A stretch of 32,000 nucleotides of DNA from Synechococcus sp. C9. Lineage in GTDB: Bacteria > Cyanobacteriota > Cyanobacteriia > Gloeomargaritales > Gloeomargaritaceae. The notes beneath the pieces are model-generated. The model had not been told where the DNA came from. It ran no database searches and saw only the letters and a list, made by a program, of their open reading frames with translations. Made by a program: the position numbers and the translations under genes. Location of the stretch: positions 878,455-910,454 of the forward strand of contig NZ_JALAAD010000001.1 of NCBI RefSeq assembly GCF_022984075.1. Direction: 5' to 3'. Below are positions 3,927 to 32,000 of the stretch, one piece after another (the stretch's first letter is position 1; each line of letters opens with the position of its first letter).

Positions 3927-3966
3927 ATTCCCCAGAACCAAGGGCGGAGGTGCGCCCTGCGACCGC
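3927..3966 (+). repeat. degenerate core-only copy of the MITE-like family
   Basis: attccccagaaccaagggcggaggtgcgccctgcgaccgc matches the family core with several substitutions. The arms are not recognisable. Confidence 0.5.
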
Positions 3967-3991
3967 TAACTTGGAATTTATAAAAGTGCCC

Positions 3992-9192: not shown

Positions 9193-9292
9193 TATAGTAA
9201 GCCTAAATGAATTGAGAACACGGGTCGTAGGGACACCGCCCCCGTCCTTGGTTCTGGGGAATTTTTCTTCGTTAATCAGGTAGGATTGCTAT
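9193..9292 (-). mobile_element. MITE-like element, inverted orientation (100 bp)
   Basis: TATAGTAAGCCTA ... TAGGATTGCTAT termini flank GGGTCGTAGGGACACCGCCCCCGTCCTTGGTTCTGG, which is the reverse complement of the family core. Confidence 0.75.
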
Positions 9293-13853: not shown

Positions 13854-14023
13854 TATAGCCATCCGACTTGATTAACAAACAGCAATTCTCCAGAACCAAG
13901 GACGGGGGCGGTGCTCCTGCGACGAGCAGTGAGGAGTAAGGAGTGAGAAGCGAGAAGTGAGATTCCCTAGAACCAGAACGGGGCGGTGCCCTGCGACCCA
14001 TGTTCTCAATTCAGTGAGGATGG
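13854..14023 (+). mobile_element. composite MITE-like element with two cores separated by a purine-rich insert
   Basis: The left arm TATAGCCATCCGACTTGATTAACAAACAGCAATTC plus core (to ~13922) is followed by the insert gagcagtgaggagtaaggagtgagaagcgagaagtgagattcc. A second core CTAGAACCAGAACGGGGCGGTGCCCTGCGACCC then follows, with the tail ATGTTCTCAATTCAGTGAGGATGG. Confidence 0.65.
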
Positions 14024-14162
14024 CTCCATTTCCCCAAAGCCCTGATTCTCGAAGCTGTCTTGTGAAACCTTGCGGATGTTAGTGAATCTTGAGGTTATGG
14101 TTAAAAGTGTTGATTTATGAGAGTTTTGAGCGGTTATGGTACGGCGTGGGAAACTAAGGGTA

Positions 14163-14247
14163 CGGAGAGAGTGGGATTCGAACCCACGGTGAGTTGCCCC
14201 ACACAGCATTTCCAGTGCTGCGCCTTCGACCACTCGGCCATCTCTCC
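14163..14247 (-). tRNA. tRNA-Ser (anticodon GGA), 85 nt, CCA not encoded
   Basis: Reverse complement: GGAGAGATGGCCGAGTGGTCGAAGGCGCAGCACTGGAAATGCTGTGTGGGGCAACTCACCGTGGGTTCGAATCCCACTCTCTCCG. Acceptor GGAGAGA/TCTCTCC; D stem GCC/GGC; anticodon stem CAGCA/TGCTG with loop CTGGAAA; long variable arm; T arm GTGGG-TTCGAAT-CCCAC; discriminator G. Confidence 0.92.
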
Positions 14248-14442: not shown

Positions 14443-14478
14443 GGTCGCAGGGGGGCACCCCCGCCCTTGGTTCTGGGT
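14443..14478 (-). repeat. core-only fragment of the MITE-like family (inverted)
   Basis: ggtcgcaggggggcacccccgcccttggttctgggt matches the reverse complement of the family core. Confidence 0.55.
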
Positions 14479-14573
14479 AACATGGGTATGCCAACAGATG
14501 TTTGGTTGGCGCAAATCAATAGAGATACCCTTATGATAAGGATAATGCAGTTGTTTTAATTCTTATCCTAACG

Positions 14574-18511: not shown

Positions 18512-18633
18512 TATAGCAATCCTACTTGATTAGTGTTAGCTTGCGTGCCGTAGGCATACAGAGATTCCCCGGAACCAAGGACGGGGGCGGTGCCCCTGCG
18601 ACCCCTGTTCCATTCTCATTTAGGACTGCTATA
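18512..18633 (+). mobile_element. MITE-like element, complete copy with a ~30-nt internal insertion (122 bp)
   Basis: TATAGCAATCCTACTTGATTA-[gtgttagcttgcgtgccgtaggcatacagag]-ATTCCCCGGAACCAAGGACGGGGGCGGTGCCCCTGCGACCCCTGTTCCATTCTCATTTAGGACTGCTATA. The termini are inverted repeats with one mismatch. Confidence 0.75.
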
Positions 18634-18682
18634 TTTTTAATGGAAATTTATAGATATTTCAAGTATTTTCTATCGTTAATCC

Positions 18683-18811: not shown

Positions 18812-20866
18812 TCAATTTATCCCCAGTGCCTTCATCGCCGCTGTCATTGGGTCGGAGAAGAATATAGGGTCAACCCGCTCGATGATCTCGCCCGATACTT
18901 CCAGAAAGTTTCGCTTGTTTTCGAGGGGAATAAGTGCCCGCCGTGCTCCGTTATCCATGCTGACCTGCAACGGCTCGGCTAATGAGCGAACAGCTTTGAT
19001 ATTTCCTTGAATGCTCAGGTCGCCGAGGATCACCAAACCAGGCAATACCGACTGCCGCTGGATAGCGGAATAGATGGCGACCACCAAGGCGATCCCAGAT
19101 TCACAAGGAACGTGGTTACTGAGTAAGTCAATCGCCTCGACATGAAAATCTGTTGTGTCGAATTGTTGAGCAATCCCCATCTTCACTTTTTGGCTTTGGA
19201 GATAGGCGAAGGCTCGTTGCAGGGATTCCTTCATCGCCCCTTCCACACCCCCTGCCACCTTCAGTTTGCCAGTGCCGGGTGAACAGCCCACTTCCAGACG
19301 ATAAAGACCCACTTTACCCTGGTCATCCACCGAGGCGGTATAAACCGATCCAGGGGCAAGGGGGTCAGCGGCAATCATATCCCGCCCCCCCTGTTCGGGT
19401 ACCCCGACAAACCGTTCTTCCCTGGTGGTGTTGTCAATAAAAGAGAACGAGGTTTGGTGGTACTCGAAGGAACCCATCTTTTTCAGCTGTTCCTTGACCC
19501 GGCGACGGCCTTCCAAGGCCAGTTCGGTAAGCTCAGCCAGTTCATCCCTGGACAACTCACCGTGGGGATAGACCAGCTTCACCAGCCCAGAAACCGACTT
19601 GCGGACAGCCTTCACATCACGGGCATTGAGATGGGAGCCAAGGGAGAAATGCCGGTCGAGCATCTCGGTGAAGTTATGCTTGCGCAGTATCCGCAGTGCC
19701 TCAGCCAAATAATCCACGACGAAGCCGTAGTGGTCGGTGAAAAATTCAACCCGCATCTTCGGGATTTCCCAGCCGGGAATGTAAAAGTGAATGCGATCCA
19801 GGAATGCCATGTCCTCACGGATCACGTCGGGCAGTGGCATGAATAAATGGGAGGAGCGCACCATGACCTCCACCGGCTGGTTGGTATTGCCGAACATGGC
19901 AATGGATGCCATACCAGACAGGGAATCCTTCCCCCGGGCAAAGGTGCCAGACTCACAGTAGGTTTTCAGGGTCGTTACCACCTCTTTCGGCATCTTTTGC
20001 AGGTCAGCCACCTCATCAAACGCCACCGCATCCCAAATCCCAACTAGCCCTATTTTGTTGGTAGCCATGTTGTAAAAAAGATTGGCTACGGTTGTCGGGC
20101 CGGTGAGCAAGATGGTGTAGGGTGAAAGCTCCTGATAGCCATAACTCTTACCTGTGCCACGGGGGCCAAGCTCCACCAGATTGTAATTCCGTTCGCAGAG
20201 GGGTACCAGTCGCACCAGAAGTAGCAATTTAACCCGTCGCTCAAAATGAGATGGCTCTATGCCAATGGTGCGGAGCAGTAGGTCAATCCACTCCTCGGTG
20301 GTAAATTCCCGGCGACAATCACAGTATTCTTCCAAGTCGAACTTAGCCAGTTGAATTGGCTTGAGGCTTTCGATCCAAAAAGGACTGCGTTTTCCTTTTT
20401 GTTCTTCATCGTACTGGTGCCGCAAATCTACTTGTGCCCAAATGCCGCCCATTAACAAACGGTCGTAGTCCCGCAGGAAGTGTTCGGGAATGTGAACGTA
20501 CCGATGCCCGAAGTTCTTTAATTCCGCCCAGTATTTGTCATCGTCGGAAACGTAGCGCACCTGCACCTTGTCAATGAGGGTGTGCTTCCCCTTGTCCTTT
20601 ACCAGCGACTGGGCTTTGTTGGCTTCCCCAGGGGTGACAAAATTCGAGGAGAGGGTATTGTTAACCACTTTCAGCCCCGCATCAATCGCCACAGGGTCAT
20701 CGGTAGCACAATACTTGCCTAACAGGTATTCGAGAACAAAGACTGGGACATTTGCTCCCACTTTCACCTTGCGAACCAAATCTTTGCGGACGACTTTACC
20801 CGCAAATACGGTTGCCGCTTTTCGATCCAGTTCAGACATGGTAGGTTCCTCAGATCGAAATGGCAA
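18812..20866 (-). CDS. brxL: BREX system Lon protease-like protein BrxL
   Basis: N-terminus MSELDRKAATVFAGKVVRKDLVRKVKVGANVPVFVLEYLLGKYCATDDP is characteristic of BrxL. A central AAA-like region (LVELGPRGTGKSY) and a C-terminal Lon-protease-like domain (GDLSIQGNIKAV) follow. It sits immediately downstream of pglZ. The likely true start is ATG at 20839, preceded by GAGGAA that overlaps the pglZ stop. Confidence 0.9.
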   Translation of the reverse strand: MPFRSEEPTMSELDRKAATVFAGKVVRKDLVRKVKVGANVPVFVLEYLLGKYCATDDPVAIDAGLKVVNNTLSSNFVTPGEANKAQSLVKDKGKHTLIDKVQVRYVSDDDKYWAELKNFGHRYVHIPEHFLRDYDRLLMGGIWAQVDLRHQYDEEQKGKRSPFWIESLKPIQLAKFDLEEYCDCRREFTTEEWIDLLLRTIGIEPSHFERRVKLLLLVRLVPLCERNYNLVELGPRGTGKSYGYQELSPYTILLTGPTTVANLFYNMATNKIGLVGIWDAVAFDEVADLQKMPKEVVTTLKTYCESGTFARGKDSLSGMASIAMFGNTNQPVEVMVRSSHLFMPLPDVIREDMAFLDRIHFYIPGWEIPKMRVEFFTDHYGFVVDYLAEALRILRKHNFTEMLDRHFSLGSHLNARDVKAVRKSVSGLVKLVYPHGELSRDELAELTELALEGRRRVKEQLKKMGSFEYHQTSFSFIDNTTREERFVGVPEQGGRDMIAADPLAPGSVYTASVDDQGKVGLYRLEVGCSPGTGKLKVAGGVEGAMKESLQRAFAYLQSQKVKMGIAQQFDTTDFHVEAIDLLSNHVPCESGIALVVAIYSAIQRQSVLPGLVILGDLSIQGNIKAVRSLAEPLQVSMDNGARRALIPLENKRNFLEVSGEIIERVDPIFFSDPMTAAMKALGIN

Positions 20867-23456
20867 CGGGGAGGGTCAGAGGCGGAGCTAGTTCTACCCC
20901 GGTAATGGCATCCAGCAGATATACCCGCACCGTCTGTTGGGAAATTTCCTCCGACAGCATTACGGTAACAGTATTTGGCTCGATGCGTCTGGGATCATGT
21001 TCAGCAAGTTTCAGCCTCACTTCGCCGGTGGCATCCTCAAATCCGTAAGAGGCACTCACTGGCTGGGAGACACACTTTTTATTAGCTCGCACTTCGATCC
21101 GCACCGTCGGTGGCTTCAATCCAAATAGGTCAATCTGCTCCTGGTTGCCGCTAATCTGTATGGAAAAAAACCGGGTGGTCAGTTTGGGGGTTCCTGGCGT
21201 TAGTGTCCACCGAATGCTGGTCGTTGTTGCTTTTGGTTGTGCCCTTGAGTGCATGACCAGTACAGGCACGATCAGCTCTTGGGGAGACAAGCCGCCGTGA
21301 AAATAAGCGCGACCACCCCCTTTCGATTTGAAAACGGCGAATGTCCAGGGGGTGGCAATGTCATATTCACTCTCTACGCCTAGGGAGGTCAGGGAGGTTC
21401 GCAGGTAAGTGGATTCCGAATTGCCGCCGATGCCCACCCACACTCGGCGATGCAGGTCTGCTACTTGTCCACCGGGGGCTTCAATTTTCATATCCTCCCC
21501 GACTTCATCGGCAAACAAGTGACCGTGATCCGCAACCAGCACGATGGTTTTAATGCCGTGATCCGCCAAGATGCGCACACCCCGGCGCAGATGCCCCAGC
21601 ACACCGTCAATTTGCAGTCGGGCTTGAGCGAGGTTGTCGGTCTCGCCCAGCTCATCAATTTCCTGGGATGTGATCAGGATTAGCTGGTGGTTCTGGATCC
21701 CGTCTTTGACCTTTTTGCTGGGCTTGGGGAGGAGGTCTTCGAGTTTGGCATCAAAGACTGCAACCCCTGCATGGTTCTTCAGGAACGCTACCCGGTCGTT
21801 GCGATTTCTCATGACCTGACCGGCGATCTCCACGCCCAGTTTGCCACCCCCAACCCCGACCACCTTGGCTGACTCGTGGGCTTTGGGGAGTAATGCCGCC
21901 ATGCCAATCTCGGTGATTGTGGGGATCATGGCGAGGGCGGGCTGACATGCGAGCGGGAAGTCGTTTGCCAAGAGGCGGGACAACTCACGCGCCATTTCAA
22001 ACCGCAGGGCATCCACCCAAACATAGGCAACCTTGCCTTCGCTCAAATGGGGCTTGACCTGTTTCTCAAAGATGTTTTGTTGCCGTAGTAAACCCTCGAT
22101 GGGATGCTTGGCTTTGGCAAATTGGGTGATGAAATGTTTGGCTAGTTCACTGCCGACCTGGGTGTACCGCTGTTCAGCCTTGGTGATCAGCTTTTCCAGT
22201 GCCTGATGATCGTCCCCAGGGGCAAACTCGAACTGATACTTGCGGCTTTCCAGGTGGCGGTGATGGGTGTCGAGTAGGCACCAAGGTTGGTCATCCTCGG
22301 CGTAGGCTTTGACGAGTTCGAGAACGGTGGTGGGGGCTTTTTTGAGTGCTTTTGCGACTCGGTCGGCTGAGAGTAAGACCTCGGCGGCGGATGCCACCAG
22401 TGCCCAGCGGGCTTGAATCTGTGACTCCACATCTGCCCAGAAGCGGGCGCGTCGTTGCTTGACTAGGTGAAGCCTTTCCGGGGTGACTTGCTTGAGAAGC
22501 TCTGTTTCGAGATGCACCAGCAAGGTTTTTTCGACGCACAGGAAGGTTTCATTCTCCTGGAGGGGATCCACGGGCAGGTCAAGCCGACTGAGACCAAGCT
22601 CCTGTTCGGTTCTGTTGGCGATGGTAATGTAACTGTCTCGATGTTCGCGGCTATTTCGCCATGAACGGGCAAGCCGGACACAGGCATCAACACCAGCCGG
22701 GCTGTGGGCAATGGCAACCGATGCTAATGGGGAAGGCACCTGTTCTTTGAGAGCGGCGCATAGGTCAGTGAGGAGAATGTGTCGCCCCAACTTGACTCGC
22801 CAGTGTGACAAGGTTTCAGCGGTAGGAAGCTGAATCTCGAAGCCCATTTCGAGCAGACGTTGGAGTTCGGTCTTCGCTCCTTTTTTGGCAATCTCCTGGT
22901 CATGCCGGTCATCGTGGAGAAAGGCTAAGGCGACTTCCTGGGGGGTGGCGGTGCCGAAGATCAGGGTGAGTACCCCAGTGGCAAGGTCTTTGCCTTTGTC
23001 GGCGAGGGCGTTGAGGTCTGCCAGGGACAATTTCCCCGCTTCCACTTGCCGCTCGATTTCACCCACTTGCTCCTCGCTCAAAATCGGCTTGAGGGCGTTG
23101 CGAGCCACGACAGATAAGCGGGTGTTGCAGGCGGGGGGTTGTTGCCGGGGTTGCATTACTACTCCGGCGGCATCCAGTTCGATCAGGGCGGCGTGGGTCT
23201 TTTCCCGTGGGAGGGGGACGTAAACGACCAAGCGAGGCGGTTGCCGGTCGTTCATGAGGTGGTCAATGTCTTTGCGCAATTGGAAGAAACTCCCCTCATA
23301 ACGAGCCACGGTGGTGTTGGGGAGGGTGAGTGTTTCTGCAATGGAGCCGTAGGCTTGCTCCGGGTCATACCAGACCACCAGCCCTTTGTCCTCGACCTGC
23401 TTGGCAATCAGTTGGGTCAGATAGGCGGTGACCACAGCCATACTCATCCCTACCAA
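20850..23456 (-). CDS. pglZ: BREX-1 alkaline-phosphatase-superfamily protein PglZ
   Basis: 868-aa ORF. N-terminus ...YLTQLIAKQVEDKGLVVWYDPEQAY is followed by a PglZ-domain region (YVWVDALRFEMARELS ... ITSQEIDELGE ... LVADHGHLF). It lies between pglX and brxL. The likely start is ATG 23447, 2 nt after the PIN1 TAG stop; the track start at 23456 is TTG. Confidence 0.9.
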   Translation of the reverse strand: MVGMSMAVVTAYLTQLIAKQVEDKGLVVWYDPEQAYGSIAETLTLPNTTVARYEGSFFQLRKDIDHLMNDRQPPRLVVYVPLPREKTHAALIELDAAGVVMQPRQQPPACNTRLSVVARNALKPILSEEQVGEIERQVEAGKLSLADLNALADKGKDLATGVLTLIFGTATPQEVALAFLHDDRHDQEIAKKGAKTELQRLLEMGFEIQLPTAETLSHWRVKLGRHILLTDLCAALKEQVPSPLASVAIAHSPAGVDACVRLARSWRNSREHRDSYITIANRTEQELGLSRLDLPVDPLQENETFLCVEKTLLVHLETELLKQVTPERLHLVKQRRARFWADVESQIQARWALVASAAEVLLSADRVAKALKKAPTTVLELVKAYAEDDQPWCLLDTHHRHLESRKYQFEFAPGDDHQALEKLITKAEQRYTQVGSELAKHFITQFAKAKHPIEGLLRQQNIFEKQVKPHLSEGKVAYVWVDALRFEMARELSRLLANDFPLACQPALAMIPTITEIGMAALLPKAHESAKVVGVGGGKLGVEIAGQVMRNRNDRVAFLKNHAGVAVFDAKLEDLLPKPSKKVKDGIQNHQLILITSQEIDELGETDNLAQARLQIDGVLGHLRRGVRILADHGIKTIVLVADHGHLFADEVGEDMKIEAPGGQVADLHRRVWVGIGGNSESTYLRTSLTSLGVESEYDIATPWTFAVFKSKGGGRAYFHGGLSPQELIVPVLVMHSRAQPKATTTSIRWTLTPGTPKLTTRFFSIQISGNQEQIDLFGLKPPTVRIEVRANKKCVSQPVSASYGFEDATGEVRLKLAEHDPRRIEPNTVTVMLSEEISQQTVRVYLLDAITGVELAPPLTLPVAISI

Positions 23457-23836
23457 TACCTCGTGATTTTGTAAGCGTCCAGTGCCGGGTCATTGCTAAT
23501 GATTGGAATTCCTTCGGTAAGTGCCTGGGCGACCAGCAAACGGTCGAAGGGGTCTTTGTGGTGAAAGGGCAACCCGATCACCCTCGCCGTGTGCATCGGA
23601 TCGATCGGAAGGATGATAAACCCGTATTTGTTCATACACGCTTCGATGAAGTCTTCATAGGGCTGATGTAGATTTAGCTTGCCAATGCTGACCTTAATGG
23701 CAATCTCCCAATACGTCGCTGGGCTGATGAAAATCTCGTTGGCTGGATCCAAAATCAATGCCCTAGCCGTCTCGCTGAGTTGCGGGTCGCCCAGCGTGTA
23801 CCAAAGGAGCGTGTGGGAATCGAGAAGGTGCCTCAC
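23450..23836 (-). CDS. PIN-domain toxin (VapC-like, type II TA) - cassette 1
   Basis: 128 aa. MRHLLDSHTLLW (first acidic PIN residue), WEIAIKVSIGKL and HHKDPFDRLLVAQAL..IPIISND match the PIN nuclease family that pairs with Phd/YefM-type antitoxins. The start overlaps the antitoxin stop by 4 nt (ATGA). Confidence 0.85.
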   Translation of the reverse strand: MRHLLDSHTLLWYTLGDPQLSETARALILDPANEIFISPATYWEIAIKVSIGKLNLHQPYEDFIEACMNKYGFIILPIDPMHTARVIGLPFHHKDPFDRLLVAQALTEGIPIISNDPALDAYKITRYW

Positions 23837-24069
23837 GGCATATACTCCGCAAAGTCCTTGAGATGCTCATCATCGTCCGCCACGATGGTGATCATGCCCT
23901 TGCACAGCCCAGGTGGTGGGCGCAGACCAGCTATCGGTTTCGGCGATTCGCTCACCAGCTTCGCCACGGGTCGATCGTTCTCTGTGATCACCAATTCTTC
24001 ACCGGGATTTAGCCGATGAATAAGATCGGGCAGTTGGGCTTGGGCTTCTTGGATGGTGACGGTTGTCAT
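23833..24069 (-). CDS. Phd/YefM-type antitoxin - cassette 1
   Basis: MTTVTIQEAQAQLPDLIHRLNPGEELVITENDRPVAKLV is the Phd/YefM-like N-terminal fold signature. The acidic C-terminus is ...DDDEHLKDFAEYMP. I prefer the ATG at 24069 (AAGAG upstream) to the track start at 24141, which would run through the pglX-remnant stop region. Confidence 0.8.
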   Translation of the reverse strand: MTTVTIQEAQAQLPDLIHRLNPGEELVITENDRPVAKLVSESPKPIAGLRPPPGLCKGMITIVADDDEHLKDFAEYMP

Positions 24070-24218
24070 AATTGGGTGCGCTCTTATAGTCATTATTTTA
24101 CCAACCCCTTTTCCCGTAACTGTTTGCCAATGGATGACCACTCGTATTTGCCCGCCAGGAGTTCTTCCCAGTATTTTTTGGCATCCTTCCAGGGGACGAG
24201 TTCCCAGAGGGGGGCGAT
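23987..24218. repeat. direct repeat copy 1 (antitoxin 5' end + leader + pglX 3' end), partner at 24825-25054
   Basis: By-eye alignment with 24825-25054: about 3 mismatches in 65 nt over the antitoxin 5' codons and about 10 in 120 nt over the pglX C-terminal codons. A more divergent ~45-nt centre lies around the antitoxin start. Confidence 0.85.
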
Positions 24219-24284
24219 ATTCAAGACAACAGATCTTAGTTTTTCTGTGTCAGAGATTCGGTGACCACAGCCATTGGTAAACAC
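24093..24284 (-). pseudogene. duplicated remnant of the pglX 3' end (last ~42 codons)
   Basis: The ORF ends ...IAPLWELVPWKDAKKYWEELLAGKYEWSSIGKQLREKGLVK. The genuine PglX C-terminus is ...IAPLWELVPWKEAKKYWEELLAGKYEWSSISKQLREKGLVK. The upstream 21 codons are unrelated. The remnant is contiguous and in frame with PIN2, separated only by PIN2's TGA. Confidence 0.85.
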
Positions 24285-24674
24285 TCAGCTCCAGATTCGG
24301 TTAACACCATAGGGATCGAAGATGTGATCGGCACTGACCAGCGGGATGTCTTCGACGAGTGCCTGAGCCGCCAGCAGGCGGTCGAACGGATCCCGATGAT
24401 GGAACAGCAACCTGGTCTGCCGCTCGGCGTGGTCGAGGGTGATTGGTAGCACTGTCAAGACAAGGTCGGCGATTGCCTTGTCCATCCACGGGCGGTAGGG
24501 CATGGATAACGGAAGGGTGCCTTTGCCGAACTTAATGGCGATTTCCCAGATGGTCGCCGCACTGAGGAGGCGTTCCATATCAGGGTTCGCTATGATTGCC
24601 ATCGCTCCTGGCGGAATCTGTGAGGGATCCTCCGCCGCCCAGATCAAGGTATGGGTGTCAAGGAGCAACCGCAT
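24285..24674 (-). CDS. PIN-domain toxin (VapC-like, type II TA) - cassette 2
   Basis: 129 aa. MRLLLDTHTLIW, WEIAIKFGKGTL and HHRDPFDRLLAAQALVEDIPLVSAD match the same family as PIN1, but identity is only ~40% by eye. The start overlaps the antitoxin stop (TAATG). Confidence 0.85.
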   Translation of the reverse strand: MRLLLDTHTLIWAAEDPSQIPPGAMAIIANPDMERLLSAATIWEIAIKFGKGTLPLSMPYRPWMDKAIADLVLTVLPITLDHAERQTRLLFHHRDPFDRLLAAQALVEDIPLVSADHIFDPYGVNRIWS

Positions 24675-24907
24675 TATGTATACTCCTCGAACTCCTCAAG
24701 GGGGTCGTCGAAGTGCTCCATCGAAAGGACGGTTCCCTTCAAGGTGCCGAATTTTGGGGCTTTTCGAGCCTCGGCGGTTGAGGCGGTAGGTACCAATCGA
24801 GCCACCGGCTGGTTGTTTTCAGTAATCACCAACTCTTCACCGGGATTTAGCTGATGAATAAGATCGGGCAGTTGGGCTTGAGCTTCTTGAATCGTAATGC
24901 TCGCCAT
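24674..24907 (-). CDS. Phd/YefM-type antitoxin - cassette 2
   Basis: MASITIQEAQAQLPDLIHQLNPGEELVITENNQPVARLV is nearly identical to antitoxin 1 over ~35 aa. The C-terminus diverges (...MEHFDDPLEEFEEYT). AAGGAG lies 7 nt upstream of the ATG, and the ATG lies 21 nt after the pglX stop. Confidence 0.85.
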   Translation of the reverse strand: MASITIQEAQAQLPDLIHQLNPGEELVITENNQPVARLVPTASTAEARKAPKFGTLKGTVLSMEHFDDPLEEFEEYT

Positions 24908-25054
24908 GTTGAGTGCTCCTTATTATTGTCATTTTACCAACCCCTTTTCCCGTAATTGTTTGCTGATGGATGACCACTCGTATTTGCCCGCTAATAGTTC
25001 CTCCCAGTATTTTTTGGCTTCTTTCCAGGGGACGAGTTCCCAGAGGGGGGCAAT
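24825..25054. repeat. direct repeat copy 2 (antitoxin 5' end + leader + pglX 3' end), partner at 23987-24218
   Basis: See copy 1. The offset between copies is 838 bp. Confidence 0.85.
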
Positions 25055-28000
25055 GGTTAGTGCTACGCCGTCGTTGATGTCCGGGTCGAGGTGCAAATTG
25101 GCTGCTCGCCGTAACCGTTCTTCCAAGTCCCGCAGATCGGACAACAATTCTTCCTGTTTCTCGATTGCTTTGGCGAGGCGTTTGGCTTCTTTGCCGCTGG
25201 TGCCCGCTGTGTTTTTCTGGGTGCGGAGGGAATCGAGCAAGCTGGTTTGTAGGCGAATTTCTGGCTCGACGGCGTTGAGCAATACTTTGAACAGGGTGTC
25301 CCGGTCGTATTGCCGGGCGTGTAGCCAGACGGCGAAATTTTTCTTGGGGGATTGCAACAGCCAGTAGATGGGTCGCTTGCGGTATTGTTGCAGGTGCCGC
25401 TTGAAAAAAGGTTCTCCCAGGTCGTTGGCGAGTCGTTCGCTCAGATTCCCTGAACCGCAGGCGGTGGCGGTGGTCACTACCTCGGTAGCGGCGGTTTCTC
25501 CCAAGCGGGTTTCCAACTGATTGAGTACCTGCTCAGCCAGTTTGTGCCGTGACCAGAAGGCTCCCTGTGCAAAGACTTTCATCACGGCAAAGCTAATCCA
25601 GGCGTGCGCCAACCCTGTGCGGTCTGTGGGAATGCTGATGGACTCTTCCTCGTTTTCTAAGGACTCCGTCCCGCTAACGCGAACGGTGGGGGGGTCGTCG
25701 TCTTCGGTTGCGGGTGGGCTTTCGGCTAATTCGGTTTCAATGGCGGCACGGTCTTGGTCGCTAATGCCGTAGAGCCGATAGACTTCTTCGTCAATCTGCC
25801 GTTCGATCTCGGCGAGTTGGGTGTGGCGTTGGGCAACCTGTTCCAGTCCATCCGACCAGGGGGGCGGGGCGACAAAATCCCAGGTGGTCTCATCTTCGGC
25901 ACTGTCCTGTTTGGCAAGGGCAATGGCTTGCTCGACCAGGGCTTCTAGTTCGGGGCTGGATTGATCGGGAATGGGTAATCGTTCCAGGTCGCCGACTTGT
26001 GTATTTACGGTCGGGTTAATGAGCCACAGTAGATATTGGAATACAGAAGAATTCAGTACAGCAAGCAATTGCATTGGATTTTGTGGGAATAGACCTGATG
26101 TTGCGTCTGCAAAAATAAACCCTTCAGGGGATAATCTCGCTGTAAATCTTCCACTCGTTACTTTAGGACACGTCACGCCGCGGCGGAAGTAGTAGTCGGG
26201 GTTCTTAGCGACCCATTCCCATTTGCCATCCAAATACGGATAACGCTCACAAATCCAGTTTTTGATCTCCGCACCATCATTTTCCCAGTTGACGACATAT
26301 TCCTGGTTGCCATACCAGCGTTGGAACGAGCCGCCCTTCATATAGGGGAACCAGCGTTTTTGGGTCTGCCGGGCTTCTTCGGCGTTTTGGCAACCAAAAG
26401 CGATGTGGGATGCGCCAACTTCCCACCAGTAACGCAGGAAACGGAAATTATCGGCAGTGGCTAAACCTTGCCGGGGTTGTGCTACATCTCCCAGTTTCGG
26501 CAGGGTCTGGAAGAGGCGGCGCAGTCCGGGTGGGATCCAATACACCCAGGGGCTACCGGGGATGGCGGCAAAGTCTTTTTGGGCATAGCGGCAGATGATC
26601 GGGTCGGTGTCGAGGTGGCACAGTGCTTGCTCAAACCGTCGGCGTTTGCTCTCGGCATCGGGTTCCTTCACCAACCGGAAATAGGTGCCAATACTCTCCT
26701 GTCGCCGCTGGGCGTTGGGTTCCTTGCGAAGGACAATCAGCGTCGTATTCACCTTCTCACCGGAGACTTCATCGAAAGCACGGGGACCAACGTGACCGAT
26801 TACTTCATTCACGGATTGTTCACCAAGCCAATTACGCAACTTCTCGTAACTGGAGATGAACATGAACGATTGCTGTGTGATCATACCGAGTCGTCCGCTG
26901 TTTCTGAGCAAGTCAATCCCCCGGAGAATAAAAGCCGCATAGAGATCACCCTTTCCCGTCGGGTACAACTTAGCAATGGCTTCTCTCATAACCGGATTCA
27001 TGTTTCGTGCCGTCATATACGGCGGATTCGTCACGACCACATCGTAGGTTTGACCTAGCAATTCCAGCAGTCTCAACCCCTGCACGGTCTCCTGAGCAAA
27101 ATAGGTCTGGTTGTATCCCCGCTCCGTTTCGGCTTTGGCAAAGGCATCGAGGGCTTGGCTGACTTGCTCTTCGAGGGTTTCCCAAAATTTCCCCTGGCTT
27201 GCTTCGCTCTCAAATTGTGCCTGGCTCCAGCCAAAAATGTCCGGTTGTCGCCCTTCTTTCTCGTAACGCTGACGCTCCACCTCGATCAACTGACGGATGC
27301 GCTTTTCCAGGGGCAATAGCGAGCCAAGATGTTCGGAGAGTTGGAGTTCCTCTTGCAAGGCTTGGAGAATCCGACCGTAAATGGGGCGTTGGTTCAAGCC
27401 AGCCGACTGGAGAAAAGCCCCCAACCGTTCCCCATTGAGCATATGCACATTGGCACAGGCTAAGCGTGATTGGCTGAGCGACCGCCGGGGTGCCAGCACC
27501 TTCGCCTTCAGGTACAACGCCAAGGCACTGATCTGGACGGCACGGGGATCAATGTCAATGCCATGTAGGTTGTGGGCGAGAATTGCGGCAGGGATTTCCT
27601 CCAGGGAAGCGACGGGGGGCGTTTCACGCCAACCGGGTTGACCGGCTCGCTCGCATTCCTCCCGATACATTTCCACAAAGAGATCAAAGGCGACCAAGCC
27701 AAAGTGCATGGTTCCGCAAGCCGGATCGAGCAGGCGAATGGAACGGATAGTGCGGACTGGACTACTTCTGGGTGCAACCTGGCGTGGGATGTAGTAGTGC
27801 AATTGCTCGGCAAGGGGGGAGTCAGGGTGCATCTCCAGCCAAAGCGTCCCCAGGGTGTTGTGAACAAGAAAGCGAACCATCCAATAAGGCGTGAAAATCT
27901 GCGTGGCGGCTGGGATGTCGTGAGGGGTGACTTTTTGCTTTTTCTTGTACAACTTCTCAAACACTTCGTCTTTTTCAGCTTCGACAAAAAACTGATACAC

Positions 28001-28627
28001 CCAACCCAATGTTTCCTCACTGCCCGGTTGCCATGCCTCGGCGAGGTCGGGGGTGTTGAGCGTTTCGGCAAGTTGCTTGAGAGCAGTGGCAGGGGGAGCG
28101 AGTCGGGTAGCCAGATTATCGGGGTCAAACAACACCCGGATTTCCGCCGCTAATTCCCCACAACGTGCCAACAGGAAGCGATGATAGGCGGCACTGCGAT
28201 ACTCCCCACCCCGCTCGTAATCTGCCAGATCAGCCTCCCGTCCAGTCTGCGTGACCCAGTGCTTGAAGCCATTGGAGTCTTCCCAACGTCCGATGGTTTC
28301 CCGGATCAGCTTGCGAGTCTCCAGCATTTTGAACGCAACGAAGCGGTTCAGCCAAGTAAAGGCGACTTCCCGCACCAGTTGCCGGTAAGCATCCACTTTG
28401 CTGATTCCCTGGGACTCAAGCAAATCAAAATGTTCCAACACCTGCAACCGCACGGATCGCTCTTCCTCGCTCAAGTGCGCCACCGAAGCCGTCCGATCTG
28501 CTATCAATGAGTTTCCTTTGAGAAAAATGGTGAACCGCCCTTCCAGCCGTTGCGCCACCGCCTCTTCCAACCACCGGCGGGATTGGGTGACGACGTTGCG
28601 GAGCTTGTTGCGAATTTCTGGGTGCAT
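24929..28627 (-). CDS. pglX: BREX-1 adenine-specific DNA methyltransferase PglX
   Basis: 1232-aa ORF. The N-terminal helical region is MHPEIRNKLRNVVTQSRRWLEEAV. It has LDPACGTMHF (SAM-binding motif I-like) and VVVTNPPYMTARN (the NPPY catalytic motif of N6-adenine methyltransferases). Its size and its position between brxC and pglZ fit PglX. Confidence 0.9.
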   Translation of the reverse strand: MHPEIRNKLRNVVTQSRRWLEEAVAQRLEGRFTIFLKGNSLIADRTASVAHLSEEERSVRLQVLEHFDLLESQGISKVDAYRQLVREVAFTWLNRFVAFKMLETRKLIRETIGRWEDSNGFKHWVTQTGREADLADYERGGEYRSAAYHRFLLARCGELAAEIRVLFDPDNLATRLAPPATALKQLAETLNTPDLAEAWQPGSEETLGWVYQFFVEAEKDEVFEKLYKKKQKVTPHDIPAATQIFTPYWMVRFLVHNTLGTLWLEMHPDSPLAEQLHYYIPRQVAPRSSPVRTIRSIRLLDPACGTMHFGLVAFDLFVEMYREECERAGQPGWRETPPVASLEEIPAAILAHNLHGIDIDPRAVQISALALYLKAKVLAPRRSLSQSRLACANVHMLNGERLGAFLQSAGLNQRPIYGRILQALQEELQLSEHLGSLLPLEKRIRQLIEVERQRYEKEGRQPDIFGWSQAQFESEASQGKFWETLEEQVSQALDAFAKAETERGYNQTYFAQETVQGLRLLELLGQTYDVVVTNPPYMTARNMNPVMREAIAKLYPTGKGDLYAAFILRGIDLLRNSGRLGMITQQSFMFISSYEKLRNWLGEQSVNEVIGHVGPRAFDEVSGEKVNTTLIVLRKEPNAQRRQESIGTYFRLVKEPDAESKRRRFEQALCHLDTDPIICRYAQKDFAAIPGSPWVYWIPPGLRRLFQTLPKLGDVAQPRQGLATADNFRFLRYWWEVGASHIAFGCQNAEEARQTQKRWFPYMKGGSFQRWYGNQEYVVNWENDGAEIKNWICERYPYLDGKWEWVAKNPDYYFRRGVTCPKVTSGRFTARLSPEGFIFADATSGLFPQNPMQLLAVLNSSVFQYLLWLINPTVNTQVGDLERLPIPDQSSPELEALVEQAIALAKQDSAEDETTWDFVAPPPWSDGLEQVAQRHTQLAEIERQIDEEVYRLYGISDQDRAAIETELAESPPATEDDDPPTVRVSGTESLENEEESISIPTDRTGLAHAWISFAVMKVFAQGAFWSRHKLAEQVLNQLETRLGETAATEVVTTATACGSGNLSERLANDLGEPFFKRHLQQYRKRPIYWLLQSPKKNFAVWLHARQYDRDTLFKVLLNAVEPEIRLQTSLLDSLRTQKNTAGTSGKEAKRLAKAIEKQEELLSDLRDLEERLRRAANLHLDPDINDGVALTIAPLWELVPWKEAKKYWEELLAGKYEWSSISKQLREKGLVK

Positions 28628-28631
28628 GGGG

Positions 28632-28805
28632 CTACCAAAGTCTGTTCAATCCGTAACAATCGAACGTCCCATCAGCGGATACAAGGCACAGTCCCTCGAC
28701 CAGGGCGGTTGCGGCAATGAGACGGTCGAACGGATCACGGTGGTATAGCGGCATTGTCGAGAGGGGTTCGATATGAGCCGATTCTAGCGGTAATAAATGG
28801 ATGTC
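28632..28805 (-). pseudogene. PIN-domain toxin remnant (C-terminal ~57 codons only) - cassette 3
   Basis: Hand translation of the frame ending at TAG 28632-28634: ...IHLLPLESAHIEPLSTMPLYHRDPFDRLIAATALVEGLCLVSADGTFDCYGLNRLW*. This aligns with the C-terminal halves of PIN1 and PIN2 (LPI...HHRDPFDRLL.AQAL.E..PLVSAD...YG..R.W). The N-terminal ~70 codons, including the MR.LLD.H motif, are missing. The only in-frame ATG (28754) leaves 40 aa. Confidence 0.7.
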
Positions 28806-29068
28806 TTCTCTAAATAATCCCGCATATCTTCAAGAGGTTCCTTGAAGTCGTCGGGTACAGTGAACTGCCCCTCATAACGACCTGCTTTGGGAATGCCCGT
28901 GACCGGGGGGCGTGGTCGTGGTGGACTGGCTTGCACAAGCGACCAAGGAATGATCTGGGCAACCGGACGCTCATTCTCGGTGATGGTCACCACTTCATCC
29001 GGCGCAAGACAGTGGATCAATTCAGCGAGGGTGTTCTGAGCTTCGTTGAGTGAAACAGTTTTTGCCAT
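28784..29068 (-). CDS. Phd/YefM-type antitoxin - cassette 3 (orphan, extended C-terminus)
   Basis: MAKTVSLNEAQNTLAELIHCLAPDEVVTITENERPVAQIIP is the same fold signature as antitoxins 1 and 2. The C-terminus ...DDFKEPLEDMRDY matches the ...PLEEFEEY ending of antitoxin 2, then runs on 9 extra codons (LEKTSIYYR) into former toxin sequence. GGAG lies 8 nt upstream of ATG 29068; the track start at 29089 is TTG. Confidence 0.75.
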   Translation of the reverse strand: MAKTVSLNEAQNTLAELIHCLAPDEVVTITENERPVAQIIPWSLVQASPPRPRPPVTGIPKAGRYEGQFTVPDDFKEPLEDMRDYLEKTSIYYR

Positions 29069-29092: not shown

Positions 29093-32000
29093 TTACTCCA
29101 AAATAACAATCGCTCCTTCATCAATACACTTCTGAAGGGAATCCCGAATCCGGTCAAGTACCTGGTCGAGTTCCGCCTGCGTCTGAATGGGACGACTGAA
29201 AAATTCTGATACTTTTATCTTTCGCACCGGGGCTTTCTTCTCTCTACCGATGGAGAGTTCCTGCAACTTGACCAGCACCGACGATTTCAACCCCTCCACA
29301 GCCGCAAGGTCGGATTCCATTTCTGTGAGGCTGGATGTGCCCAGGGATTGCCCTTCTGTCACAGCCTGTTTGTCCTCTTCCGTGCCCACGCGACTCTGCA
29401 AGGGGGACAACAGGGATTGAGCCAGACTGGGGTTCGCGGCTGCCACAGGTGCCCACTCAGGACGGTTTTGAATTTCGTCAATGGCTGACTCGTAAGCCTG
29501 TTTGCGACGGTCGAAAAGCTCACAGTAGGCGGTTTGGTACGCCTCCAGCACCTGTTTGGTGTAGGCAACAATGTTGTCCCACGCATCGAGAAACTGCTCT
29601 GAAACGAGCAGGGCTTTGAGTTCTTCAACCCTAGTGTGAAGTTCGGGGGAGGGGGCATGAGCCGACAGCCGTTGCCACACTTGCTCGGTTGCCTGACGGG
29701 CTTGCCGGAGAATGGCGATAGCCTCCTGGTTCAGGAACTCCCGCAGTTTACGCACCTTGTCCCGTGTTGCTCCGAACTCTCTGCCGCTCTCGGTCAGAAT
29801 GCGAACGCAATCATCAGAAGCGGAGGACTGAATCCCCATCAAGGTTTGCTGGTACTCCGAAAGCATGGGCAACACCGGCAGGCGATGGGCTTCGGCAAGG
29901 GCTTTGAGGGGATAGAGCTTTGCCAGTTCCTCGGCGGCAACTTTCTGAAAGGCGGTGGCAATGGCTCCTTCCTCCACATCCACCTCTTCCCCGGTCAGGT
30001 TCTCCAGTTGCTGTACAGCTTGGGTAAGGGTTTTGAGACCAACCGATTGGCGGGGCGAGAACAGCGACGAGCGAAATGCTGAAATGTTGGTAAATGGGGT
30101 GCGGGAAGCGGGGTCTTGGTAGTTGTGAAAACGGTTGCTTTGATAAGTAACTTCAATCTCGCCCGCCCGGAATAGGGTAGCCAGAATCAGCCGTAGCATA
30201 TCCCGTTCCCAGCCGTAGGGCGTGCCGCTGAAACGTTTTTCCAGTGCCTTGCCCATGCAGGTGTCTCTGTTGCCATAACTGAATTCGCTCTTGAGGTAGT
30301 CCAGCACTTCTTTGGCAACGGGGGCGGTGGTGCAGATGATATTTTTCGCACCGTCCTTGACGACCAGCCCTAACCCTTGCTCCCCGGCGTAGAAGACGTT
30401 GGGCAGGGCTTTCAGGTCGGCGGCTTTGAGAATCTGCTCAGCTTCATCCCCTTTAAGCGGACGAGAACCCATTGGCAACTTGGGGTAGAGGTCAGGCACC
30501 ACTTGCCCGAAGAGCTTTTTGAGGATTTCGCCCAAACTTTTTCCCAAGGCAGAAGCATCCTTCTGCACACCCCGGAACATACCCGTGCCACTCTCTAAGG
30601 CTTCGGTGAGCTTGTCCCGCAGGCGAATTTCATAGCCGTTTTTTAAGTTTTTCTCGTCTTGCAGGCAGGTGGCTTCGTCGGGGCTGATTTTTTGTTGGGC
30701 ACTCAACTGGTTGTATTTGTCCACCATTTTGCAGGAAGCATAAAGTTGATGGACAAGTTCATCAATCTCTGGAGTCAGGCAGAAGAGCCAATACAAATCA
30801 TTTTCGTGGGATTTTTGCTGGCTTTCGGTGCGGATTTCCTCAAGGCGTTGGGTGAGTTCATCGGCATCGTCCGAAACACATAAAGTCAGGGGCAATTCCC
30901 CTTCATCTCCAATGCTGGTGCCGTCAACATTAATGCCGATACGAAACGAGCGATTTTGATAGCGGAAGGTCTTGAACTCCGGATCATTAAAGAGCTGCTG
31001 CAGGGCAGTACGGATAAGTTCCCTTTCTTCACGGGGCTTGGGATCGAGATACCCGCTGCGTTCGTTGGTCCAGCTCTTTTCTTGAGCAGTCTGGAGCTTC
31101 CAGCCTTCCTCAGTGTTGCGAATGAATTTGGCGGACTCCAGTCGCTTCACGGCGGCTTGCACTTCCTTGAGGGGGGCAGCCTTACCAACTTCATCCACGA
31201 GCATGGCGGCAATGTTGACTTCAGTGCGGGGCAGGTCACGAATGAACTCCAGGAGACAGATGACTTTAGCGACCTGCAAAGCCCAGCCCTGATCGTCGGG
31301 ATCGGTCTTGAATCGCTCCGAGATTTCGTAAATGTCCGTACGTTTCTCGTTGGAAAGATTGCCCTCCACCAACTCGAACACCTTGTCGAGGGTCACCAAT
31401 GCCCCAATCGGCTTGTTGGCAAAAGCGGTGCGCTCGGACACGAGCATCTCGTAGGCTTGTTTGATGATTGTGCGGTTACTGCCGCCGTAATGCCGGGGGG
31501 CGCCAGGTTGCAACCGGATACCTGACATGATGCCGATGCACAGGTCAATGTAGTGGGGGGGATAGGGATAGAATTGCACGAAATCCGCCTCGGTAATCTC
31601 CGTGCGGTGGGTGGGGCGTTCCAAACGCAGAGCGGCGTTTAGTTGTCCTTCGTTTTTCTTGAACAAATCCCGTAGGAGTGCTTCAGCTTCGGGCTGCTTC
31701 GCCAGGACACGCTTGGTGGCGACTTCCCGAATGTCGGACGGGGCAAGGTCAACCCGGTAACGGAACCGGTCTTGGAGTTTGGCTAACTCTACCCTTTTAG
31801 AGTCAATGGCGGCGACTACTTCATCGAGCTTTTCCTGGGATGTGACCACAATCCAGCAGGGAGCAATGATCTTTCTCGCCTTGAGCAAGTTTTTGCCAAC
31901 CTTGCCAAACTCCTCAATGGTCGCCCGCAGGTCTTCAATTTTGTCACCGCTCCGAGCCACGTGCTGACCCACTTCGTCAATGATAAATACAAGTGCTTTC
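29093..32000 (-). CDS. brxC: BREX system P-loop ATPase BrxC/PglY (partial; N-terminus beyond the right window edge)
   Basis: The reading frame stays open upstream of the track's GTG at 31972, right to the window edge: KALVFIIDEVGQHVARSGDKIEDL..., where FIIDEV is Walker B-like. More than 960 aa are in the window, and the gene sits directly upstream of pglX as in type 1 BREX. The helical repeat-rich C-terminal two-thirds is typical of BrxC. Confidence 0.85.
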   Translation of the reverse strand, partial: KALVFIIDEVGQHVARSGDKIEDLRATIEEFGKVGKNLLKARKIIAPCWIVVTSQEKLDEVVAAIDSKRVELAKLQDRFRYRVDLAPSDIREVATKRVLAKQPEAEALLRDLFKKNEGQLNAALRLERPTHRTEITEADFVQFYPYPPHYIDLCIGIMSGIRLQPGAPRHYGGSNRTIIKQAYEMLVSERTAFANKPIGALVTLDKVFELVEGNLSNEKRTDIYEISERFKTDPDDQGWALQVAKVICLLEFIRDLPRTEVNIAAMLVDEVGKAAPLKEVQAAVKRLESAKFIRNTEEGWKLQTAQEKSWTNERSGYLDPKPREERELIRTALQQLFNDPEFKTFRYQNRSFRIGINVDGTSIGDEGELPLTLCVSDDADELTQRLEEIRTESQQKSHENDLYWLFCLTPEIDELVHQLYASCKMVDKYNQLSAQQKISPDEATCLQDEKNLKNGYEIRLRDKLTEALESGTGMFRGVQKDASALGKSLGEILKKLFGQVVPDLYPKLPMGSRPLKGDEAEQILKAADLKALPNVFYAGEQGLGLVVKDGAKNIICTTAPVAKEVLDYLKSEFSYGNRDTCMGKALEKRFSGTPYGWERDMLRLILATLFRAGEIEVTYQSNRFHNYQDPASRTPFTNISAFRSSLFSPRQSVGLKTLTQAVQQLENLTGEEVDVEEGAIATAFQKVAAEELAKLYPLKALAEAHRLPVLPMLSEYQQTLMGIQSSASDDCVRILTESGREFGATRDKVRKLREFLNQEAIAILRQARQATEQVWQRLSAHAPSPELHTRVEELKALLVSEQFLDAWDNIVAYTKQVLEAYQTAYCELFDRRKQAYESAIDEIQNRPEWAPVAAANPSLAQSLLSPLQSRVGTEEDKQAVTEGQSLGTSSLTEMESDLAAVEGLKSSVLVKLQELSIGREKKAPVRKIKVSEFFSRPIQTQAELDQVLDRIRDSLQKCIDEGAIVILE

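Follow-up and report, generated by a model that had tools for sequence, protein, structure and literature searches.

The locus described here raises the question of how two toxin–antitoxin (TA) pairs with closely similar front ends came to lie one behind the other inside a bacteriophage exclusion (BREX) operon. It is contained in a window of 32,000 nucleotides (nt) from Synechococcus sp. C9 (assembly GCF_022984075.1, contig NZ_JALAAD010000001.1, positions 878,455 to 910,454 of the forward strand), and all coordinates given below are those of the window. The window harbours a type 1 BREX operon of a thermophilic Gloeomargaritales-like cyanobacterium, with brxC, pglX, pglZ and brxL all on the minus strand. 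A direct repeat of 230 bp in this operon is the best-kept part, or front end, of two TA pairs stacked in the gap between pglX and pglZ. The history that we consider probable is that two allelic, long-diverged cassettes were stacked together with their BREX flanks, and that their front end was then homogenised by gene conversion.

In the order of transcription, the minus strand carries brxC, a third antitoxin (AT3), the remnant of a toxin (PIN3), pglX, antitoxin AT2, toxin PIN2, a stub of pglZ, a short filler, an orphan pglX tail, antitoxin AT1, toxin PIN1, pglZ and brxL. Families were assigned by profile searches, using the Pfam gathering scores and the NCBIfam BREX cut-offs.

The tandem unit and its junction

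The direct repeat, first proposed from the sequence alone, was borne out by global alignment. Segments 23987-24218 and 24825-25054 are identical at 202 of 232 positions (87.1%) with two gap columns, compared with a mean of 46% and a maximum of 53% in 300 shuffles. A repeat search detected two blocks, 24083-24218/24919-25054 (136 nt, 89%, spacing 836) and 23963-24069/24801-24907 (107 nt, 83%, spacing 838). The similarity is unevenly distributed, with nucleotide identities between the copies of 116/129 (90%) in the pglX tail, 30/47 (64%) in the leader and antitoxin codons 1-8, and 56/60 (93%) in antitoxin codons 9-28. Beyond codon 28 it falls to 55% in the remaining antitoxin and 53% in the PIN genes, and the longest perfect match between the repeat copies is about 30 nt.

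Copy 2 begins with the last 42 codons and the stop of the intact pglX (24929-25057; 116/129 identical to copy 1), followed by leader 2 (24908-24928), which runs from the pglX stop to the ATG of AT2, contains an AAGGAG ribosome-binding site and is identical to leader 1 at 14 of 23 positions. Copy 1 begins with an orphan pglX tail of 45 codons and a stop (24093-24230; VVLNIAPLWELVPWKDAKKYWEELLAGKYEWSSIGKQLREKGLVK), followed by leader 1 (24070-24092), from the stop of the remnant to the ATG of AT1. Each copy ends with codons 1-28 of its antitoxin. The orphan pglX 3' end had been placed at 24093-24218 with 42 codons; the orphan is real, and it extends to 24230. It lies inside an open reading frame (ORF) of 63 amino acids (aa) at 24093-24284. 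A corresponding orphan tail is present in the closest genome found, that of Gloeomargaritales cyanobacterium VI4D9 (L013), where it matches the PglX tail of VI4D9 itself with a score of 228.

Downstream of PIN2, positions 24245-24274 (minus strand, like the other features of the array) encode the first ten codons of pglZ (MAVVTESLTQ), with a stop two codons on, and are identical to 23412-23441 at 25 of 30 positions. VI4D9 possesses the stub as MAVVTEYPTQ, compared with MAVVTEYLTQ at the start of its own pglZ. The position of the stub implies that PIN2 once directly preceded a pglZ gene, as PIN1 now does. Because a copy of the pglZ start follows PIN2, the repeat unit extends as one block from the pglX tail through pglZ codon 10, with a single junction. 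The complete tandem unit of 836/838 bp is thus homologous throughout, comprising pglX tail, leader, antitoxin, PIN and the first ten pglZ codons; the sequence-only reading had recognised the 230-bp similarity and overlooked the stub that closes the unit. Between the stub and the orphan tail lies a filler of 14 nt (24231-24244), which appears to mark an illegitimate join; in the alignments it did not convincingly resemble pglZ beyond codon 10 or pglX further upstream than codon -45. Both the stub and the orphan tail are scars, and no separate function is proposed for the repeat.

An assembly artefact was ruled out, since the tandem is also present in the complete VI4D9 genome and in twelve independently assembled metagenome contigs spanning both copies. 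Contig L001, from the same strain and 100% identical, breaks at the edge of the repeat.

The cargo of both units is of the same kind. AT2 (24674-24907, 77 aa) and AT1 (23833-24069, 78 aa) match Pfam PhdYeFM_antitox with 33.4 and 35.9 bits (cut-off 29.8), and the toxins PIN2 (24285-24674, 129 aa) and PIN1 (23450-23836, 128 aa) match Pfam PIN with 39.6 and 52 bits (cut-off 23.6). These four gene calls, and that of PglX, which scores above its BREX-1 cut-off, agree with those made from the sequence alone. The ATG of PIN2 overlaps the stop of AT2 (TAATG, 24672-24676), and the GTG start of PIN1 overlaps the stop of AT1 (GTGA, 23833-23836). Both toxins keep the acidic motifs LLD(S/T) near residue 6, WEIA near 43, DPFDR near 95 and S(N/A)D near 115, as read from the alignment. 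The C-terminal parts of the antitoxins match DUF2281 below the gathering score, AT2 with 22.2 and AT1 with 19.3 bits; the same holds for AT3. A PIN toxin with its acidic residues and an overlapping upstream antitoxin with an N-terminal domain of DNA-binding type are the features of VapBC-like type II systems, and both pairs look like ordinary autoregulated modules of this type. The N-terminus of AT2 has a faint match to VapB46 (E = 0.066). No solved structure was detectably similar to PIN1.

PIN1 and PIN2 are 45% identical. The C-terminal halves of the antitoxins, previously described as essentially unrelated, are in fact 36% identical (z = 9.5 against shuffles), share the motif G-x-KG...D(D/E)xL(K/E)(D/E)F-EY and both match DUF2281 at sub-threshold scores. 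The proportion of synonymous sites that differ (pS) is 0.87 in the PIN genes and 0.82 in the antitoxin C-half, so that the synonymous divergence (dS) is saturated there, compared with a dS of 0.22-0.48 in the repeat. A cargo so much more diverged than the front end speaks against a simple recent tandem duplication, as the sequence-only reading had also concluded. The orphan tail differs from copy 2 by nine synonymous and three non-synonymous changes, a ratio of non-synonymous to synonymous divergence (dN/dS) of about 0.07. Neutral drift of the remnant would predict about seventeen non-synonymous differences, which implies that its sequence stems from functional pglX alleles, either from the outset, through later overwriting, or both.

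Conservation of the stack and conversion between its copies

Relatives were found by exact-protein look-up with AT2 (10 of 15 records), AT1 (nine) and PIN1 (two), PIN2 and PglX being without records, and by an additional 20-mer scan of metagenome contigs. VI4D9 is 89-93% identical to the window in the BREX core genes at the nucleotide level and 93.6% in a neighbouring flank. Thirteen sequences span both copies, including VI4D9 and L060, and twelve of them are metagenome contigs. All thirteen keep the order AT2, PIN2, stub, tail, AT1, PIN1 and pglZ, with which five partial contigs are compatible. The presence of the arrangement in VI4D9 dates the stack to before about 9% nucleotide divergence had accumulated; among the relatives sampled it is fixed, and it is old and not actively varying.

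Recombination between the repeats had been predicted to delete 838 bp and to leave a chimeric AT2/AT1 gene. Neither such a deletion nor the chimeric gene was present in the thirteen spanning sequences and five partial contigs, which come from at least sixteen samples. Different cargo behind the same anchor was likewise not found in the close relatives, all of which carry both cassettes in one order. The exact look-ups with PIN1, AT1 and AT2 gave no single-copy arrangement, and the two hits of the 20-mer scan were both compatible with the tandem. The locus does vary in the population, as had been suspected, not by deletion but through short tracts of conversion or exchange, two allelic forms of the AT1 C-half, decay of toxin genes and one insertion with three recombinases.

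Gene conversion of the anchor, one of the possibilities raised from the sequence alone, is directly supported by the comparison with VI4D9. Over the leader and antitoxin codons 1-8, the two copies of VI4D9 are identical at 46 of 47 positions and have VI4D9-specific bases in common, compared with 30/47 for the two copies of the window. Over the same tract, copy 2 of VI4D9 and copy 2 of the window agree at only 28/47 positions, with flanks of 93-98%. In VI4D9, copy 2 has a leader and initial eight antitoxin codons of the copy-1 type, so that leader 2, a divergent patch within the repeat of the window, is replaced there. Derived states that are common to both copies of one genome and absent from the orthologue, over a delimited tract, are the mark of gene conversion between tandem paralogs. 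At variable sites of the pglX tail, copy 1 and copy 2 have states in common in a patchy pattern across strains. Copy 1 of L006 has a third, more foreign tail allele, and strains of the L004 type have a longer copy-2-like tract in AT1, with a different tract boundary.

The sharp boundaries of identity lie within the antitoxin gene. The N-terminal 28 aa of AT1 and AT2 are 86% identical to each other and at most 71% identical to any other antitoxin, and at the nucleotide level codons 9-28 are 93% identical between the two genes and 57-68% identical to others. The antitoxins are mosaics, because their N-termini group AT1 with AT2 while their C-halves follow their toxins; the C-halves and toxins come from two old BREX-associated lineages, and the front ends became alike within this genome lineage.

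Other differences between the relatives concern the cargo. Among the strains, the AT1 C-half (23837-23985) exists as two alleles that are about 16-19% apart (31% in L012). In L004 and L009, PIN1 beside this C-half allele is still 99-100% identical, and in VI4D9 the AT1 C-half is shorter by two codons. Toxin genes decay repeatedly across the relatives and antitoxins persist. PIN2 of VI4D9 (L013:11154-11540) has a stop at codon 12, and PIN2 of L060 (L060:6610-7000) is split into 31 and 105 aa. For PIN1, the differences concern L003 and L056 (the L003 call is of 78 aa, on a contig with many frameshifts), and it is called at 124 aa in L011, L057 and L060.

Some metagenome contigs also differ in structure. 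In L060 (7232-12278), an insert of 5.05 kb interrupts leader 1 (window 24087/24084) and separates the orphan pglX tail from the start codon of AT1. Its three neighbouring tyrosine-recombinase genes encode proteins of 737, 489 and 370 aa and recall a 'recombinase in trio' element, and its left edge repeats about 19 nt (24133-24152). In L005 (1-1290) and L007 (1-1040), a 1.16-kb segment with the pglX 3' part, leader and AT2 5' end (window 24806-26095, inverted) lies head-to-head with the AT2 leader, which yields inverted repeats of 125 nt; the segment departs from the pglX of the window upstream of 26020. This could be a real inverted cassette, or else an inverted amplification or assembly chimera. 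In L004 (1-1136), pglX begins at the equivalent of residue ~441, and the 1.1 kb upstream match neither the window nor the loci compared, which indicates either a rearrangement or a chimeric contig.

Origin of the stacked cassettes

The proteins of the window were mapped onto 41 BREX loci that belong to the same clade and come from many phyla. Members of the AT1/AT2-PIN family were found between pglX and pglZ in five of the 41 loci (L020, L029, L030, L035 and L038). PIN1 is closest to the toxins of L035 (64%) and L020 (59%), which are among Planctomycetota and other BREX loci, and PIN2 is closest to that of L038 (57%). The antitoxin C-halves show the same affinities, that of AT1 being 70% identical to the L020 antitoxin and 59% to L035b, and that of AT2 64% identical to the L038 antitoxin versus 37% to AT1. 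The relationships are thus incongruent along the unit, with AT1 next to AT2 at the N-terminus, and TA1 next to L020/L035 and TA2 next to L038 in the C-half and toxin. Together with the pglZ head stub, this supports acquisition on a shared anchor, which the sequence-only reading had put forward.

In the history that we favour, two BREX loci or alleles would each have carried a different, already long-diverged cassette at one pglX-pglZ site, as the stubs in the flanks suggest. One recombination event would then have joined both, by homologous pairing in conserved BREX sequence on one side and by an illegitimate join on the other, from about codon 10 of pglZ of one parent to codon -45 of pglX of the other. 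Candidate pathways are an unequal crossover, or homology-facilitated illegitimate recombination after DNA uptake, and the product is the order seen here, pglX-TA2-pglZ'|'pglX-TA1-pglZ. The comparison with relatives shows that short-tract conversion between the copies, together with exchange with other alleles, evened out the pglX tail and codons ~9-28. The result is a common N-terminal, presumably DNA-binding domain, with C-terminal, presumably toxin-binding halves matched to their own toxins.

Similar scars are present in other phyla. Locus L032 (Pirellulales) has the order pglX, a nucleotidyltransferase and a 240-aa protein, a pglX tail remnant (12454-12537), a DUF433 and DUF5615 pair, and pglZ. 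Locus L044 (Desulfobacterales) has pglX, an AAA_15 ATPase and a 282-aa protein, a pglZ head remnant (6200-6247), an RHH and PIN pair, and pglZ. With the locus of the window these are three cases only, and they support BREX-by-BREX recombination as a candidate recurrent route to stacked cargo. The 42-aa PglX tail is near-invariant in protein across phyla and has 75-81% nucleotide identity, which makes it a ready natural homology arm. The size of the pglX|pglZ gap varies across the 41 loci, from 3 bp up to about 3.4 kb, and its cargo includes AAA_15/AAA_21 ATPases, GmrSD, Schlafen/AlbA_2, SIR2-like proteins, a nucleotidyltransferase, DUF433/DUF5615 and RHH-PIN or PhdYefM-PIN pairs. A tentative extension, which we hold with less than even confidence, is that in this clade of type 1 BREX, which is widely transferred, the gap serves as an integrase-free cassette array, in which the PglX tail and PglZ head would act as universal homology arms for the swapping and stacking of immune genes and TA pairs between unrelated bacteria. 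Imprecise events would leave stubs, and stacked pairs would perhaps share their DNA-binding domain by gene conversion, with their regulation coupled to pglZ-brxL.

In L029 (11533-12542) and L035 (11117-11998), both from other phyla, the pglX|pglZ gap contains two antitoxins followed by a PIN gene. An orphan antitoxin of one C-terminal type precedes there a complete pair of another, a further form of cassette stacking and decay. A search with the 63-aa remnant ORF for orphan PglX tails elsewhere gave short ORFs only and no reliable count of scars. The matches on long contigs that were opened were mostly pglX fragments in frameshift-rich assemblies (L063-L065), and the search also revealed L060. 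In two further matches, L061 and L062, only short, fragmented ORFs are called where pglX is expected. Both (L061:7001-10513, L062:7001-12584) have a PglX-tail ORF, antitoxin, PIN and pglZ, with no recognisable pglX body, and L062 has transposase genes upstream. The tail and TA block appear to outlive the loss of pglX in these two contigs, the assemblies being frameshift-prone.

Several points weigh against the proposed history. No relative with a single cassette (pglX-TA1-pglZ or pglX-TA2-pglZ) was recovered in the cyanobacterial lineage, and the two parental alleles are for this reason inferred and not observed. The 14-nt junction has no assignable microhomology, so that the recombination pathways named above are candidates, and the cross-phylum comparison of cargo is limited to eight cassettes. 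The low dN/dS of the tail would also result if functional alleles repeatedly overwrite the remnant. In addition, the orphan tail and junction are 97-98% identical between the window and VI4D9, above the BREX core genes and the measured flank. Conservation of the supposed scar could reflect constraint, for example on a promoter or a small ORF; a recent exchange of the segment from TA2 to the tail would explain it just as readily. Compared with the window, eight metagenome strains are mostly 99-100% identical over the interval from AT2 through the orphan tail, apart from 86% in the tail of L006 and in leader 2 of L008; their flanking pglX and pglZ are 91-93% and 92-98% identical, respectively.

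A different explanation, which seems to us unlikely, is that the repeat is kept alike as a shared regulatory module. The tail and leader would hold a promoter or operator matching the DNA-binding domain of the antitoxins, both pairs and pglZ-brxL would be cross-regulated, and the distinct toxin-binding halves would avoid cross-neutralisation. Consistent with this, the homogenised tract ends where the PhdYefM match ends (Pfam codons ~1-42; identity falls after codon ~28-31), and conservation of the orphan tail among relatives (97.7-100%) exceeds that of the adjacent BREX genes. A TGGTAAAAT motif, resembling an extended -10 element, lies at the pglX stop in both copies. The stop of PIN1 is 8 nt ahead of the pglZ ATG, so that TA1 is probably co-transcribed with pglZ-brxL, and a separate pglZ-brxL transcript has been published for other type 1 BREX systems. 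However, a consensus sigma-70 promoter scan gave no site on the coding strand, and neither copy has an inverted-repeat operator of at least 8 nt. The leader, where an operator is expected, is the least conserved part between the copies (61-64%). The TGGTAAAAT motif is confined to the cyanobacterial copies, the pglX stop overlapping the next start codon in other phyla, and AT3 of the same operon has a different N-terminus (46% identity). Such a module, which is speculative, is compatible with the stacking of two BREX alleles, to which it would add a selective reason for the conversion while replacing nothing.

We regard as quite unlikely an in-situ tandem duplication of one 838-bp unit by unequal sister-strand exchange, in which the cores would have diverged for a long time and the front end would have been kept alike by gene conversion and/or selection. 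The perfect head-to-tail unit with its single junction, the demonstrated conversion of the front end and the age of the tandem are all in agreement with it. Nevertheless, in-paralogs should be mutual closest relatives unless both later reached other phyla, and PIN1 with the AT1 C-half is nearer to Planctomycetota and other BREX cassettes (59-70%) than to PIN2/AT2 (37-45%), just as PIN2/AT2 is nearer to L038 (57-64%). The predominance of synonymous differences in the tail (9 vs 3) is also unexpected for a drifting pseudogene copy. An actively exchanging cassette site, with frequent 838-bp deletions, chimeric antitoxins and varied cargo behind the anchor in close relatives, is very improbable: a 230-bp repeat of 87% identity is a possible RecA substrate, small natural chimeras exist (AT2 of VI4D9 with an AT1-type leader and first codons) and the locus varies in other ways, but the tandem is kept in 13/13 spanning sequences with five partial contigs in agreement, the look-ups with AT1, AT2 and PIN1 and the 20-mer scan gave neither a single-copy arrangement nor alternative cargo behind the anchor, and a longest identical stretch of about 30 nt limits homologous recombination.

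The surrounding operon and comparison with known systems

The genes around the array, all on the minus strand, identify the operon as type 1 BREX through a BREX-1-type PglX, a PglZ phosphatase-family protein, a BrxL Lon-like protein and a BrxC ATPase. The brxC gene (29093-31972) matches NCBIfam BREX_BrxC with 447 bits (cut-off 400) over model positions 262-1172. The listed ORF starts at 31972 and the match begins at position 262 of the 1173 of the model, the true start probably lying past the end of the window. PglX (24929-28627) matches NF033452, BREX-1 PglX, with 844 bits (cut-off 500), and is also matched by Pfam Eco57I and N6_Mtase. PglZ (20850-23441, 863 aa) matches Pfam PglZ with 65 bits (cut-off 25); its score of 185 against the NCBIfam BREX-1 PglZ type A model is under the cut-off of 270. 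The last gene of the operon, brxL (18812-20839), matches NCBIfam BrxL with 1088 bits (cut-off 628). The positions of brxA and brxB are outside the window, and the related contig L003 possesses both upstream of brxC (Pfam BrxA and BrxB).

Small putative VapBC-like pairs, each of a PhdYefM/DUF2281-type antitoxin and a PIN toxin, occupy the gene junctions of this operon, one TA family being present in three copies across the pglX|pglZ and brxC|pglX junctions. The third antitoxin, AT3 (28784-29068, minus strand, 94 aa), matches Pfam PhdYeFM_antitox and DUF2281, both under the gathering scores, and is 34-36% identical to AT1 and AT2. Of its toxin, only the last 40 aa remain (28632-28754, minus strand; Pfam PIN profile positions 88-115 only). 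A clean in-frame deletion of 210 bp in PIN3 (28632-28808) took the N-terminal 70 codons, including the catalytic Asp and Glu region; PIN3 is whole (128 aa) in L003, L013 and L060, against which the window aligns with a gap of 210 nt. AT3 is kept beside the broken toxin gene and is 98.5% identical to the VI4D9 copy. The pglX gene is itself mosaic among close relatives. Two blocks, 26735-26997 and ~25940-26481 (PglX residues ~543-631 and ~715-896), are unaligned or about 80% identical in nucleotide alignments, compared with 89-95% in the remaining pglX, which suggests that target-recognition segments were swapped between strains.

Mobile-element boundaries were also considered. Similarity of about 80 nt between the flanks of the BREX island does not represent a tRNA or att site, but a dispersed repeat with at least nine copies in the window, whose only tRNA is at 14163-14247. 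The repeat is G+C-rich, about 50-80 nt long and without a tRNA or Rfam match. Its copies lie at 18555-18639, 1703-1781, 9193-9262, 639-687, 1956-2029, 13876-13923, 13959-14031, 14443-14495 and 3927-3967, one of them just downstream of brxL, and further copies flank the BREX island of VI4D9 on either side and precede brxA in L003. An integron-type cassette array was rejected, as the window has no integrase in or next to the array, the repeat copies contain no inverted repeat of at least 8 nt, and the boundaries are stubs of BREX genes.

The pairs are similar to VapBC systems with an antitoxin of the Phd/YefM fold, such as VapBC46 of M. tuberculosis, in having a small upstream antitoxin that overlaps the PIN gene, an N-terminal PhdYefM match and a C-terminal tail. 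They differ in the antitoxin C-terminus, which is DUF2281-like (below the gathering score), and toxicity and neutralisation are putative here. As in the concerted evolution of tandem paralogs, the copies of one genome (VI4D9) share lineage-specific bases over a short tract in which the orthologues differ; the tract of the window is different in spanning the end of a live pglX, a pseudogene stub and the 5' parts of two antitoxin genes, which gives chimeric antitoxins. Homology-facilitated illegitimate recombination and unequal crossover, reportedly described in 2002 by de Vries and Wackernagel and by Prudhomme et al., are said to be an insertion route in naturally transformable bacteria. The likeness is that one side plausibly lies in homologous sequence, the pglX tail being so conserved, and that the other is one non-homologous junction with recipient genes left partly duplicated. 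With the absence of assignable microhomology at 24231-24244, this pathway is only a candidate.

Programmed inversions of pglX with silent cassettes are known (Goldfarb 2015; Milman et al. 2023, PMC9881135), and they also place a partial extra pglX copy beside the full gene; L005 and L007 even show an inverted 1.16-kb pglX 3' segment. The copy in the window, however, is direct and only 45 codons long, corresponds to the invariant tail instead of the variable part for target recognition, and lacks an adjacent recombinase. It is unable to switch specificity. Phase-variable PglX was thus rejected for the window, which has no inverted pglX copy and no recombinase gene between brxC and brxL.

Accessory effectors and TA modules inside type 1 BREX loci have been published, such as BrxU/GmrSD in pEFER and PARIS in a Salmonella BREX, and a survey (NAR 2026, PMC12839542) describes HNH, OLD, HEPN, PIN and Schlafen effectors embedded in BREX core loci. 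The locus of the window is similar to these in having extra defence or toxin genes between core genes in the same orientation, and the gap cargo of the 41 loci belongs to the same classes as those in the portions of the published accounts consulted. These portions give co-occurrence and not the route of arrival, whereas the pglX and pglZ stubs of the window record BREX-by-BREX recombination. Duplicated BREX stubs as evidence of the arrival of cargo, and partial homogenisation that gives rise to chimeric antitoxins, were not found in the part of the BREX literature examined.

The locus is an instructive evolutionary scar, and neither a new kind of system nor an active switch. It provides a record, readable from the sequence, of how cargo would enter and pile up in BREX, by recombination through conserved gene ends followed by local gene conversion. 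The antitoxins are a natural example of modular proteins that have their N-terminal domain in common but toxin-binding halves of their own, and may be usable for the study of cross-regulation versus insulation between co-resident TA pairs.

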